Shown: positions 5,330-48,241 of the stretch, piece by piece | Position numbering within the stretch: the stretch's first letter is position 1 | Layout: each line of letters starts with the position of its first letter | Origin: Octopus vulgaris | Taxonomy: Eukaryota | Assembly: GCA_951406725.2 (NCBI GenBank) | Contig: OX597818.1 | Coordinates: forward strand, 134,664,001 to 134,728,000 | Length of the DNA stretch: 64,000 nucleotides | Direction: 5' to 3' | Made by a program: the position numbers and the translations under genes | Notes under the pieces: generated by a model | Databases searched by the model: none | Seen by the model: only the letters and a program-made list of their open reading frames with translations | Told to the model about the DNA's origin: nothing

Positions 5330-5375
5330 AGTACTGAAGAGAGGCAGAAATAGCCCGAAACCAGACTGGTATGCT
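5330..5375 (+). ncRNA. Type I hammerhead ribozyme
   Basis: AGTA-CTGAAGA-G(A)GGC.AGAAATA.GCCC-GAAA-CCAG.A.CTGG-TA-TGCT; predicted GUA cleavage after 5371. Confidence 0.75.
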
Positions 5376-5687
5376 TGTCCCGTCGCTAAACGGTGGTAGG
5401 GGTTTTTGTTCCCCTGTTCGCAGTATATTGGATGCAGCTGTGCATCGTTAACCACCGAGAGGAGATATCCTCTTGCGCTTAAAAAATCGCAGTAAAGTCC
5501 GTTCGAATAGAGCATCCAAGTTGAAGTGGCTATGAATATTACTTGCTAGTATAACAACTGCGATTATCTCCTAGAGAGATTTTAGAACTAGTTCTTTAGT
5601 TTGTTGCAAAATCAGCGACTAAGGGTCACTTGAATTTATATGTTACGAGCAGAGGTGAGCTACTGCCATCTCTAGCAGACGAGGTGT

Positions 5688-5737
5688 CCAGTACTGAAGA
5701 GAAGCATAAATAGCCCGAAACCAGACTGGTTTGCTGG
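5688..5737 (+). ncRNA. Type I hammerhead ribozyme (second tandem copy, stem II weakened)
   Basis: CCAGTA-CTGAAGA-GAAGC.ATAAATA.GCCC-GAAA-CCAGACTGG-TT-TGCTGG. Confidence 0.65.
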
Positions 5738-7868
5738 TCCCGTCGCTAGAAGGTGGAATGGGGTTCGTTCCCTTGTTCGCAATATATCGGAAGCAGTGGC
5801 GCATCGTTAACCAGCTAGAAGAGATGTCCCCTACGGCTTAAAAAATTGCAGTAAAGTCCGTTCGAGTGGAACAGCCATGTTGAAGTGGCTACGAACATAA
5901 CTTGCTATAAACACACACACACACACACACACACACACACACACACACACGACGAGCCCCTTTAAGTGTCTGTCTACCAAATACATCCCCAAGCTTGGTC
6001 GGCCCAAAGTGCCACCCAGTGAGACTGATCCTGGAACCATGTGTCAGGAAGCAAACTTTTTACCACACAGCCATGCCTGCACCTTCACAGTGTGTCTGTG
6101 CGTGCGTGTGTGTGTGTGTATGCAATTCAATTCTGTTGTTAACACAGGGTTTTGTCTTGCTAATGATGATGGCTTCTTTTAATCTCAGGTTCCCAATGTT
6201 GCGTCCCGGGACATCAATGGAGGCCTTAATGTCTTGAGTATTGCCTTTCTCCAGATGTTCTTTAGGCAGAAGAAGCATAACTATAAAGAAATTCGGGGTC
6301 GAAAAATCAAGTACCAGTTGCATACTGGGGTCGATCTAATTGACTGGCCCTCTCCCCACAAACATTTCAGGACTTGTGCCTATAGTAAAAAAGTATATTG
6401 CGACAGTTACAGAATATAGAAAGAAGGGTAAAACCAATAACTATATAATCCAACCAAAATATCTCAGTTACACAAACGTAAACGGAATTACTATTTAGCC
6501 TTAAAATACATCGTACATATTCAAAGAACCCTCTTGGTTTAGTGGTACGGAACGTTTTTCTCGTATTCTTTTATTATTTTACTTGTTTCAATCATTTGAC
6601 GGTGGCCATGCTGGAGCACCAACCAAATTTCTCTTATACTATGCTCTTGTTAGTATTAAGAAAAGGAAAAAAATGTAATTAATATCTTTGATTTTGTTCG
6701 GCTCTATAAATTTAATCTTTTTAATGCTTTCATCCATTACTTGATACAAAAAAAAATGGAAAAATCCTGACCATAACAAGGAAATTGTAACTTAACAAAA
6801 ATATAGAAAGAGAAAGAAAAGGTTGTATTCGAAAGCCAAACGATATTTTATTTTTAATGAGATGTACTTTTATAATTCAAGCAAATTCAAAATTTAAATT
6901 TCGGAACTTAACATGTTATCTGGTGTACGGCCGAACTGAAATGGATAGAAAACCTACAACAAATGTGCGTGTGCGTGTGTGTGTGTGTGTGTGTGTGTGT
7001 TTGTGTGATTGGGTCTTTAATAACCAGGGGTCAATTTCAGTTCAATCGTAGAAAGGAATTCAATGGAATTCAGCCATTCCTTCTCTCTCTCTCTTTCTTT
7101 TTCACTTCTCTCCTTGCTCGACACACGCATCAAATTTAAGTATCTTAATTTTCCCATTCAGATCGTTCGTGGTTTCAAATCTCCTCCAAAATTACAAGAG
7201 GTCTAGTTAAGAATTTTTATTCAAGTAACAAAATTTCTTTCAACAATATCTTTCTTTTAAGCGTGACGCTCGCGTCAAGTACGTACAAAAAATAAATTGG
7301 CGTATTAATATTCTGATTATAGCTGTATATATAACAACCCCATAATAATATTTTCTTTATTTTCATTTTACATTACCTTATTTCCTTTTTTTATTTATCT
7401 TAGTATAGCAACTTTAATTGGTTTACTTTTATAAAAATATTTTAAAAAGAGAATTTTTTTAGTATAAGTGTTTTTCTTATAATTTTTTTTTATTATAGGC
7501 TATATTAAATCTCTGAGTGATATATAAACAGTAGGCGCAGGAGTGGCTGTATCGTAAGTAGCTTGCTAACCAGCCACATGGTTCTGGGTTCAGTCCCACT
7601 GCGCGGCACCTTGGGCAAGTGTCTTCTGCTATAGCCCCGGGCCGACCAATGCCTTGTGAGTGGATTTGGTAGACGGAAACTGAAAGAAGCCTGTCGTATA
7701 TATGTATATATATATATATATATATATATATATATATATATATATCAACAATAAAGGAACGGCCATAATAGGCCATTCACCCACTAGAAATAACAGCCAA
7801 AGCTTCAACCGCAAATAAAAGTTAATTCAGTAAACCAGGAGAAAATTTTAAAAAACATTTACCCTGTA

Positions 7869-7975
7869 ATTTCTTATACGATATACCGTTTCATCTGCTG
7901 ATTAGTGGTAAACTAACCTGATTAAATTAAATCAAGCCAATCTTCCACAGGCCCTCAGATTCTTCAGTAAGAAAT
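7869..7975 (-). ncRNA. Type I hammerhead ribozyme (inverted copy)
   Basis: Reverse complement of the HHR at 8402-8508, with TCTTCAG at 7961-7967. Confidence 0.85.
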
Positions 7976-45602: not shown

Positions 45603-46115
45603 CTAGCAGTATCGCCCGGCGTTGCTCGGGTTTGTAAGGGAAATAACTATATAAGCATTTTTAGAGAGTTACTTCCTTTATAGATGCCAATTCGGGCTTT
45701 CTTAGCCATTTCTGTTTTGGTGTCTTCAAGCCATGAAGTCGTTGTTCTAAAAGAACGCTGGTCTCCTTGACAACGCTTTACGACGTTGATTTCCTTAAGC
45801 TCCCTTCCCCACAGCTTCACGAGGGAGGGAAGAAGGGGGAGAAGCAAACAGGTGCAGGTGTGACCATGGACGCCAACTCCGCCGCCATCGACACACGAAA
45901 AATTATGCATTAAAATGGAATAAAAAATGATGTTAAATTATTTTTAAAATCGTAGACTCATCGTAGACGCGCGCTAATACTCAGACGGGCTCGATATGAA
46001 TCACGACTATAAGATACCCGAATTTGGTTAAACTGCACCGCAAAATGTGGGAGGAGTTAGGAATCTAAATCGTAGGAGACAGACACTCACACAACTACAG
46101 TTTTATATATATAGA
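45603..46115 (-). mobile_element. Non-autonomous Helitron (family H1)
   Basis: Minus strand: 5' TC..., 3' hairpin CCCGAGCAACGCCGGG then CTAG, inserted at A|T. Near-identical copy at 52362-52870(-) and a related copy at 48406-48800(+). Confidence 0.8.
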
Positions 46116-47140
46116 TGACCCCAGGACTTATTCTTTGTAAGCACGCGAACATTGACTGTCAAGCGATGGTGGGAGGACAAACACAGGCACGAAGACATTT
46201 TTCGTCTGCACGCCCTTTCATTTTGCCACCACCACTCACACACGCACACATGCACACTACCTCTGTTCACCTCCCACTATTTTTACTTCTCACCACGACT
46301 CCACCCGAGCATTGCTGACTTGAAGAGTTCCGTAGAACACCTGCAAGTCAAAGGTGGAGCGGATCTGGTTATCAGCTGAGTCCATTATAAAGATCGTACC
46401 ACCTCCTTCCTTTGGCTGAGAAGGTTGAGCTGTTTAGGCGAAAGAGGCTATGTGAGGACCAGGCTGTAAGATCTGAAGACGTGCACCTTCCTCTTTGGTC
46501 AAGCCCTCGTCGACGTTTTTCAAGTTACAGACGAAAAAGACAATGAGGGTAAACTAGGAAATACTGTCCCTGGGGAAATTTGTTGAAATGTGGATGAGAG
46601 TGGCGAGCATGGTCTGGGCGGCCGGGCCTTCTCTGAGCATCTTTATATCTCTTATTATAAAAGGCAGATTTTATCTGCCTCCCTTTGGGAGTTATACAAA
46701 TCTACAATATAGGATTTCTTCAATTACAAGTTACCTTGCATTTTTAAGAGTACAATGCATCGCGTCATGCCAGGTCCAGTTTTTAAAATTTAAACTCCAG
46801 TTAAGCAAAATTTACAGAAAACTCACATTCTGGTGTGTGTGTCAAATGCTTTTCTTAGTCTGGTTTACACCACACGCAAACGCACACACACAGTGGGCAA
46901 CGAATAAAATGAAAGTAATTGACTTACTGTAGTGAGTGATTCTTTCACTCTGCCTCCCACTTCCTCTTTCCACACAGACACGCAAATATATAAATAAAAT
47001 TGTAAGCTAACGTGCGTGTGTGTGAGTGGGTGTGTGTGGGTGTGCGCGTGTGTGTGTGTGTGAGGGTGCGTGTGTGCGTGAGTGTGTGACAGGAAAGTTT
47101 TTTTACGACGAATATAACACCTATATCCAAGTAGCAGAAA

Positions 47141-47620
47141 GATAAGACAGTAAGGTGTGATTTGAGGGAGATTTGGCTGCTATTTCTACCATGTCTAGCT
47201 GCCATGTAGGGGTCTCCCTCATAGGCTCATACATACATATATACATAGATAAGACAGTAAGGTGTGATTTGGGGAAATTTGGCTGCTATTTCTACCAGGT
47301 CTAGCTGCCATGTAGGGGTCTCCCTCATAGGCTCATACATACATATATACATAGATAAGACAGTAAGGTGTGATTTGGGGGAAATTTGGCTGCTATTTCT
47401 ACCAGGTCTAGCTGCCATGTAGGGGTCTCCCTCATAGGCTCATACATACATATATACATAGATAAGACAGTAAGGTGTGATTTGGGGGAAATTTGGCTGC
47501 TATTTCTACCAGGTCTAGCTACTATGTAGAGGTCCCCCTCATTGGCTCATATATATATACATACATAAGACAGTAAGGTGTGATTTGAGGGAGATTTGGC
47601 TGCTGTTTCTACCAGGTCTG
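47141..47620 (+). repeat. Minisatellite, 106-107 bp x ~4.5
   Basis: Unit starts at 47141, 47248, 47354, 47461 and ~47566. Confidence 0.9.
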
Positions 47621-47982
47621 TTAGGCCTTCTCATGTAAACTCAAGCTTTCTCATGCCTTGAACATAAGACCAAAGCAGAGAATGTATTCTTTTATTCTTC
47701 TGCTTTTTCCAGCCATTGGTCTGTGGCCATGCTGGGGCAATGCCTTGAAGAATTGTAGTTTAATGAATCAACTCGTTTTATTTTTGTAAGCATTGTACTT
47801 ATTCTATCTGTTTCCTTTGTCAAACCACTAGGTGACAGGGATGTAAACAAACCAACATTCGTTGTCAAGCAGTGGTGGAGGACAATCACAAGCACAGACA
47901 CGCACACACACACACATACATGCATACACATATACACACATACATACATACATACATATATATATGTGTGTGTATATATATA

Positions 47983-48241
47983 TTGCAGCGTGGAAGGTGT
48001 TTGTAAGCCATTTAAGAAACACACAAAAACCGTTACATTCACTTCAACATTTAAATTTAATTTGCCAAAATATTTTCGTCGCTTTGAGACCGCGACCTGT
48101 TCACTGACAAAAATATCGTGCTAACAGGTCGCGGTCTCAAAGCGATGAAAATATTTTGACAAATTAAATTTAAATGTTGAAGTGAATCTAACGGTTTTTG
48201 TGTGTTTCTTAAATGGCTTATAAACACCTTCAACGCTGCAA
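47983..48241. repeat. ~120-bp inverted repeat in (TA)n carrying a variant HHR
   Basis: 47983-48102 is the reverse complement of 48123-48241. Confidence 0.9.
48062..48110 (-). ncRNA. Type I hammerhead with G3-C8 swapped core (GUGAACA)
   Basis: Minus strand: TTGTCA-GTGAACA-G-GTCGC.GGTCTCAAA.GCGAC-GAAA-ATAT-TT-TGGCAA. Confidence 0.65.

Follow-up and report, generated by a model that had tools for sequence, protein, structure and literature searches.

The 64,000-nucleotide stretch of Octopus vulgaris DNA analysed here (contig OX597818.1 of assembly GCA_951406725.2, positions 134,664,001 to 134,728,000 of the forward strand; "the window" below) carries 14 type I hammerhead motifs, which are real hammerhead sequences of a known kind, namely those of Penelope-like elements (PLEs) and of retrozymes. 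We read them as lying in what are likely the 3′ end pieces (pseudo-long terminal repeats, pLTRs) of several PLE families and in non-coding derivatives of these, left by likely about ten insertions into (TA)n, and give this reading a probability of roughly 0.88. It is built on direct observations: the motifs and their copy numbers, 3′ ends that abut (TA)n, two 3′ ends per family, the tandem and inverted layout, and the linkage of three families to coding frames. Three papers were also counted in its favour (PMC4209133, PMC8557442 and PMC11167929). What is new is that whole families of these putative ribozymes carry fixed core variants, G3-C8 and A6U.

Hammerhead motifs in the window and across the genome

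All 14 motifs claimed by the first-pass annotation of this DNA have the type I arrangement. By family (A to H), they are as follows.

5329..5376, plus strand: family A, copy 1; C3 at 5334, stem III CCAGACTGG, predicted cut after 5371
5688..5737, plus strand: family A, copy 2; C3 at 5694, in tandem 360 bp downstream of copy 1, stem II damaged, predicted cut after 5731
7869..7975, minus strand: family B, inverted arm; C3 at 7967
8402..8508, plus strand: family B, unit 1; C3 at 8410, 8-bp stem I, long stem II, stem III CGGTATATCG, predicted cut after 8500
8894..9000, plus strand: family B, unit 2; C3 at 8902
9671..9718, minus strand: family C; C3 at 9711, family-wide C10.1.A11.1 mismatch, stem III CTCGAG, stem I damaged in this copy
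12241..12332, plus strand: family D; C3 at 12248, T here where the family majority has C15.2
12589..12655, minus strand: family E, copy 1; C3 at 12646, stem II 23 nt shorter than in the 26300 copy (a deletion), 3′ end in (TA)n
15046..15142, minus strand: family F1; C3 at 15138, U.U at 10.1/11.1, stems weak family-wide, in an AT-rich insertion (14558-15733)
25790..25868, plus strand: family G; C3 at 25796, A16.1, against U in all 16 other aligned rows
26220..26309, minus strand: family E, copy 2; C3 at 26300
33029..33072, minus strand: family F2, inverted arm; C3 at 33068
33629..33672, plus strand: family F2; C3 at 33633, in a palindromic insertion (32928-33840)
48061..48111, minus strand: family H; G3-C8 core (GTGAACA) with G3 at 48104, extra G after A9, 7-bp stem I, predicted cut after 48068

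The core CUGANGA, GAAA and NUH in type I order is canonical in 12 of the 14 copies. The other two are 25796, which is likely dead because it has A16.1 where its family has U16.1, and 48104, with its covariant G3-C8 pair. The palindromic stem III inserts that the annotation had listed were also found in the motifs. Since tandem and inverted copies inflate the count, the motifs reduce to about ten insertions of eight families, 12646 and 26300 belonging to a single one (E). The earlier claim of at least seven unrelated families is therefore right in number, but 15138 and 33068/33633 (F1 and F2) form one clade with a common 3′ end.

For counting, we have used a descriptor made up of the core with any Watson-Crick pair at 3-8, scored stems I and II, a near-palindromic stem III and UH. 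It gives nine matches in the window, whereas 100 block dinucleotide shuffles average 0.05 and never exceed 1, as the annotation would lead one to expect. The five motifs that it misses (5694, 9711, 12248, 15138 and 25796) score too low, their stems being weak or damaged or, in 25796, position 16.1 being A; the majority sequences of four of the families concerned are well formed, and in the family of 15138 stems I and II are weak throughout. A relaxed scan allowing one mismatch added only 25796 as a further motif, and its CTGCCGA matches within family B, which had the lowest score, were judged to be chance and rejected. In an Rfam scan of the window, none of the 150 matches listed out of 228 was to a hammerhead family.

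The genome comprises 2.8 Gb in 227 contigs, and positions chosen blind (54 single 10-kb stretches and ten 60-kb windows, 1.14 Mb in total) served as background. The short stretches contain 18 matches and the 60-kb windows 24, with about one in the shuffles of each set. These 42 matches form 29 clusters, equivalent to 2.4 matches and 1.6 clusters per 64 kb, and extrapolate to about 98,000 motifs genome-wide. Compared with this, the nine matches in six clusters of the window lie in the upper tail (Poisson P=0.0066), an enrichment that is inflated because we already knew the window when writing the descriptor. Some 290 windows as rich as this would be expected genome-wide; one of the ten blind windows has 10 matches (mostly one array), three have none, and the maximum is three clusters. 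The four 10-kb stretches flanking the window gave one weak match. The set had been called unusually dense, which holds for its place in the upper tail but not in the sense of being unique: the window is richer than most but otherwise an ordinary part of a genome very rich in hammerheads, not a special hot spot. Repeats matching the fetched loci make up at least 68% of it, no host exon was identified in it, and in the literature on hammerheads in octopus or cephalopods we found no paper describing such a cluster.

Family searches returned 989-2,859 first-look candidates for the eight queries, and 16-21 related rows per family were aligned, some of the loci overlapping. The majority states of A, C, D and G are well formed in these alignments, and their window copies are decayed, with 85-95% identity to the nearest relatives. 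Numerous identical copies of B and F2 in the genome indicate that both families are young.

Coding frames, retrozyme units and 3′ ends

The following pieces of the window bear on the origin of the motifs.

2014..2337, plus strand: internally deleted relic of a Neptune-type PLE reverse transcriptase (RT), 71-78% identical to an intact Neptune-type RT in the genome
5053..5141, plus strand: PLE linker zinc-finger relic, CxxC before a GIY-YIG domain
5166..5910, plus strand: family A insertion with an inverted 5′ arm and a partial tandem, ending at (AC)n
7746..9230, plus strand: retrozyme-like, non-coding family B array, with an inverted copy (7746-8236) and two 492-bp units, and (TA)n at both ends
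13541..13577, plus strand: decayed Neptune-type pLTR hammerhead overlooked by the first-pass annotation, U6 core CTGTGGA, G12 being T here

PLE relics had been noted near the hammerheads, and both the RT relic and the linker relic are confirmed; a meaningful link behind the adjacency of the linker to the 5334 motif is unsupported. A link of this relic to family A was rejected, as no family A hammerhead occurs in seven related loci, and family A has no linked open reading frame in 14 related loci.

With the RT relic as query, many long open frames were found in the genome. The elements at loci L163 and L164 have a pLTR-frame-pLTR structure with RT and GIY-YIG domains and Neptune-type zinc-finger motifs, and the intact element of this type carries the U6 motif in both repeats. 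In Pfam, the Neptune-type frame matches RVT_1 above the cut-off and GIY-YIG below it (E=0.005); a C-terminal GIY-YIG, a CX2-5CxxC linker and an internal CxxC can be read from its sequence. The stretch 13424-13716 of the window, which holds the 13541..13577 motif, is a decayed pLTR of the same L163/L164 lineage. Intact, near-identical Neptune-type PLEs with frames of more than 1,000 codons and a U6 hammerhead were seen at L163 (1439-5700), L164 and G000 C8, C24, C2, C16, C17 and C11; elements of the L163/L164 type are candidates for a currently mobile family.

Two further families lie 3′ of Hydra-like frames, F2 of an 822-codon RT/GIY-YIG frame (L234) and E of a related GIY-YIG endonuclease frame (L236; endonuclease part only), so that three families in all (F2, E and the U6 family) are linked to RT/GIY-YIG frames. 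The frames of L232-L234 have DKT, a CxCX5C linker, no CCHH, and CxxC plus CxH near the C-terminus; for the RWK motif, the sequence present is RIKWK. Pfam found no family for the L234 frame, which matches the Neptune-type RT weakly (E=1e-4). Judged by their motifs, the F2 and E frames appear to match the Hydra clade as described in PMC8557442. The loci L232-L235 hold a young, AT-rich Hydra-like PLE with an asparagine-rich linker, in complex inverted and tandem insertions.

Family B differs in having no PLE protein match in 14 loci. Its units are non-coding, repeat with a 492-bp period and contain a type I hammerhead each, with up to five hammerheads per 3-kb locus, and the family is best read as a young non-coding tandem retrozyme. 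The PLE and retrozyme origin proposed in the annotation is thus borne out, by frames for F2, E and the U6 family and by B as a retrozyme. The B unit is also found in contigs of runs guessed to be RNA, including one 523-nt head-to-tail record that could be a circle, a tandem transcript or DNA.

B, E, F2 and H have two 3′ ends each, a short one and another about 55-110 nt longer, and these resemble the PLE tail with its two reverse-transcription start sites (PMC11167929). In the five families examined, the 3′ ends lie mostly next to (TA)n, which abuts 12 of 12 short ends in B, 11 of 11 in E and 8 of 10 Neptune-type element ends, compared with 6% of random points (ends counted by eye); the preference is less strict in H. 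The microsatellite targeting that had been suspected is hence supported, with (TA)n as the target.

The window copy of family H sits in a fold-back insertion (47983-48310), which is itself a passenger in a larger repeat.

46644..48810, plus strand: 2.17-kb composite repeat carrying the family H copy, with a 5′ TC and a 3′ hairpin plus CTAG

We take this composite to be Helitron-like. It holds a 107-bp tandem, a short interspersed nuclear element and the G3-C8 hammerhead fold-back, and its copies are 95-99% identical and sometimes arranged as inverted pairs. The composite context is common to 30 fetched loci, one of them rearranged, and family H also inserts independently outside it. Identical H copies exist in the hundreds, but as passengers of this larger repeat they were not accepted as evidence of selection. 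A search for a family H tandem junction with one tail-to-head pattern gave no match. At L325 (1600-2142, plus strand), an intronless 180-aa frame of the dCMP-deaminase family (PF00383) is closely preceded, on the other strand, by a family H element; the frame is duplicated about 6.2 kb apart in L324.

Core variants, selection on the fold and rival explanations

Across the families, stems I and II can form with covariation, weakly in F1. From the alignments, it is clear that pairs change together: the family B subfamilies have ATCTG/CAGAT or ATCTA/TAGAT in stem II (a G-C to A-U swap) and AT or GC at the centre of stem III, with the palindrome kept, and family C alternates between GGGT/ACCC and GAGT/ACTC. 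In the F clade, stem III alternates between AATT and GATC and position 7 varies (3,250 exact matches, none in the control). Family C keeps CTGAGGA in 17 of 21 rows, with a 7-bp stem I, and position 7 in family G is A7/T4/C2/G1 over 14 rows.

Over 14 distinct inserts, with the interior of stem III left unconstrained, complementarity holds at 32 of the 33 interior and 23 of the 24 innermost pairs (shuffled controls, 9 of 21 and 4 of 8). As the innermost pairs are impossible in a monomer hairpin, they are evidence for dimers and agree with the dimer cleavage that the annotation had associated with palindromic stems. The predicted stem III duplexes also favour dimers, with −7 to −14.7 kcal/mol for most motifs, though only −2.9 for F2 and −0.2 for H. 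Taken together, the covariation in the stems and in stem III points to dimer-dependent ribozymes that would be under selection.

The fixed core variants are abundant. The G3-C8 pattern of family H has 8,488 exact matches and none in the reversed-pattern control, and the minimum-energy fold of the H unit has stems I and II around an open core. The A6U pattern of the Neptune-type lineage has 18,988 exact matches, again with none in the control. Position 7 is T38/A27/C22/G13 among the first 100 of these listed, and the U6 descriptor has nine matches in the blind set and none in four shuffles, with zero for A6C and A6G. Sisters with the same stem II and a letter other than U at position 6 number 5,753, mostly A among the 100 listed. 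A further Neptune-type lineage is C4 (U4C, CCGACGA; 12 of 66 rows, for example L266 and L291). An alternative register for U6, with a U3.G8 pair, was rejected because it breaks stems I and II and because the A6 sister fixes the register. Positions 10.1 and 11.1 are unpaired as C.A in family C and free in the F clade. The consensus (above 80%) for PLE-associated hammerheads, G10.1-C11.1 together with an extra base after A9, is seen in H and in the Neptune-type motif; A, D and E have G10.1-C11.1 without this base, and B, C, F and G lack the G10.1-C11.1 consensus. Families with a U3-A8 core occur at L050 (8667-9406) and in blind window C8_30 (40160-40352), as tandem and inverted pairs.

In the hammerhead literature, we found no report of a natural G3-C8 or A6U, although Lunse et al. 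2017, which lies outside that search, may describe variants. Neither change appears as a fixed state in the alignment of Figure S3 of PMC4209133, and the main text of PMC13282606, in the part available, mentions neither ribozyme nor hammerhead. Natural U3-A8, A6C (slow, of low activity) and U10.1-U11.1 have been reported (PMC3088659), and an engineered C3G/G8C partly rescues a PLE hammerhead whose cleavage is reported to need protein (PMC11167929).

The pieces could fit together in the following way. In the source elements, a multimeric transcript would bring two hammerheads together, whose palindromic stem III strands may pair mutually, and the RNA would then be cut slowly, probably helped by the element protein. 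The PLE enzyme would nick AT-rich DNA and begin reverse transcription at either of two sites that lie 3′ of the ribozyme, presumably leaving 5′-truncated, tandem or fold-back copies. Selection on the fold would act in the source elements, with the fixed changes G3-C8, U6, C4 and unpaired 10.1/11.1 being tolerated. Several observations weigh against this account. For A, B, C, D, F1, G and H, the fetched loci gave no PLE frame at distances up to 1.5 kb (the one match, near L308, is unrelated), and we therefore infer the driver of those families. The 14 stem III inserts lack phylogenetic independence, and the stems of F1 and F2 are weak though these families are young. For family H, the pattern with other letters at position 3 has 428 matches, mostly single mutants among the 100 listed, and none of these 100 is a canonical sister with the family H stems; since position 7 is also fixed by the pattern, selection on the H core is unsupported. 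In the sole PLE studied biochemically, moreover, cleavage is dispensable for insertion in vitro (PMC11167929).

The last point bears on whether the G3-C8 and A6U families are dead ribozymes, fixed by hitch-hiking, with cleavage unneeded for retrotransposition and only a fold or a protein-binding role kept. We consider this quite possible, though we lean slightly away from it. It would agree with the low activity of A6C (PMC3088659), with the only partial C3G/G8C rescue and the normal in vitro insertion of hammerhead mutants (PMC11167929), with the three core states (canonical, C4 and U6) of sister Neptune-type lineages, as expected of relaxed constraint, and with the amplification of part of family H inside another repeat. 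However, the free positions of U6 are 7 and 17, those tolerated by hammerheads, and U6 copies keep C3, U4, G5, G8 and A9 with few exceptions, H17 being A or U (66 rows); the open core in the fold of the H unit likewise speaks against decay. Chance matching to a short motif in AT-rich repeats is already refuted for the set. It may account for a few blind matches, as shuffles give about one match per 540 kb, and F1 is weak, but none of the 100 window shuffles reaches nine matches, reversed-pattern controls are zero for the G3-C8, U6 and F patterns, and the stems and stem III covary.

The first-pass annotation had raised the idea that the window may be intronic, with hammerheads that cleave the pre-mRNA. 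This, or a special hot spot, we regard as very unlikely. The excess of clusters (six against 1.6 expected, P=0.0066; blind maximum 3) would suit it, and the family B copies are intact, in tandem and on one strand. Yet chance alone would produce about 290 windows of this kind, 10 matches occur in one of the blind windows, motifs lie on both strands with no host exon identified, copies 5694, 9711, 12248 and 25796 are damaged, and retrozymes are described as excluded from introns (bioRxiv 10.64898/2026.07.22.740005). In equilibrium folds of full-length insertions (all except C, D and F1), the cores of 7967, 8902, 33068, 33633 and 48104 are predicted to be paired in inverted duplexes with a probability of 0.94-1.00, stem I forms appreciably only in 5694 and 12646 among those folded, and only A and B have same-strand dimer partners. 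If transcribed, the fold-back B, F2 and H insertions would give long double-stranded RNA, a likely substrate of adenosine-to-inosine editing in cephalopods. The single-copy parts of 28150-31240 have almost no contig cover in four runs in which repeats are covered, which is uninformative on intron status. With no intron evidence, motifs on both strands, several copies damaged and others buried by inverted partners, pre-mRNA cleavage is unsupported, and the window copies are likely mostly passive relics that would not efficiently cut a host transcript.

Returning to PLE-derived hammerheads under selection in their source elements, we propose tentatively, at somewhat less than even odds, that lineages with G3-C8 (at least 8,488 copies), U6 (at least 18,988, including intact young elements), C4 and unpaired 10.1/11.1 all still cleave, slowly and gated by dimers or protein, in a genome of about 100,000 hammerheads. 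If so, the core consensus now accepted would be too restrictive, and descriptors of the standard kind would overlook tens of thousands of working ribozymes per genome. The canonical, U6 and C4 Neptune-type motifs with the same stem II are matched natural pairs, with U6 present in intact young elements, and they allow a direct test of whether cleavage is a requirement for PLE hammerheads and to what extent the core is invariant.

Two further hammerhead-related features, both overlooked by the first-pass annotation, are found in the window.

16027..16075, minus strand: degenerate hammerhead-like motif, C3 at 16069, G12 being C, in a repeat related to family A
10688..10762, plus strand, with a second copy at 11531-11605: scrambled hammerhead blocks, in the order cut site, GAAA, CTGAAGA

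The repeat holding the scrambled blocks (10429-11704) is a young non-coding 843-bp tandem with 874 exact matches, many of them tandem. Its elements are TAGTAAT/ATTACTA (stem III), a UC site, TCAAGA/TCTTGA (stem I) and CTGAAGA last, and the stem II partner may lie upstream. Elsewhere in the window, tandem arrays of a 184-185-bp unit lie at 22538-23648 (six copies) and 57559-59402 (ten copies). A decayed transposase frame at 26449-27910 (match L106) is presumably Tc1/mariner-like, a near-perfect 138-bp inverted repeat at 52903-53040 resembles a miniature inverted-repeat transposable element, and a tRNA match at 62104-62185 (minus strand) scores 35 bits, above the Rfam gathering score.

Comparison with known systems

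The closest likeness is to the minimal type I hammerheads of PLE pLTRs (PMC4209133), with which the octopus motifs share the topology, the palindromic stem III, many heterogeneous families per genome, a predominance of truncated single copies, pairs in inverted orientation, the U3-A8 variant (here in blind matches) and, for H and the Neptune-type motif, an additional base following A9. In contrast, fixed G3-C8 and U6 cores are seen here but not in the Figure S3 alignment as we read it, the descriptor of PMC4209133 having fixed the core; several of our families lack G10.1-C11.1 (A-U in B, C.A in C, free in the F clade); and stem III inserts are up to 10 nt and stem II regions up to 70 nt long. 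The roughly 100,000 motifs here compare with about 9,000 in Xenopus tropicalis, obtained with a different descriptor; other published counts, again with other descriptors, are about 4,000 for coelacanth, about 5,000 for mussel and up to 120,000 for axolotl. With the natural core variants of PMC3088659 our families have U3-A8, U10.1-U11.1 and a change at A6 in common, whereas A6U and G3-C8, absent from the available part of that account, are each fixed here in thousands of genomic copies.

The F2 and E frames resemble endonuclease-bearing (EN+) PLEs of the Hydra clade (PMC8557442) in DKT, CxCX5C, the lack of CCHH, CxxC/CxH, (TA)n targets and the hammerhead, and the L163 frame is like the Neptune clade of the same paper in its CX4CxxC linker and the CxxC inside GIY-YIG, a placement made by motifs. 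The optional tails are about 55-110 nt here, as compared with 30-40 nt for PLEs in that source. Family B is like the metazoan non-LTR (long terminal repeat) retrozymes (PMC7229834; bioRxiv 10.64898/2026.07.22.740005) in its non-coding, head-to-tail, young units of low GC content, with one type I hammerhead per unit (PMC7229834). It is unlike them in its unit of 492 bp rather than the 150-450 reported, its PLE-style inverted 5′ arms, the 107-nt optional tail and the strict (TA)n ends. The scrambled-block repeat at 10429-11704, finally, resembles the type-SGC of PMC10085705.

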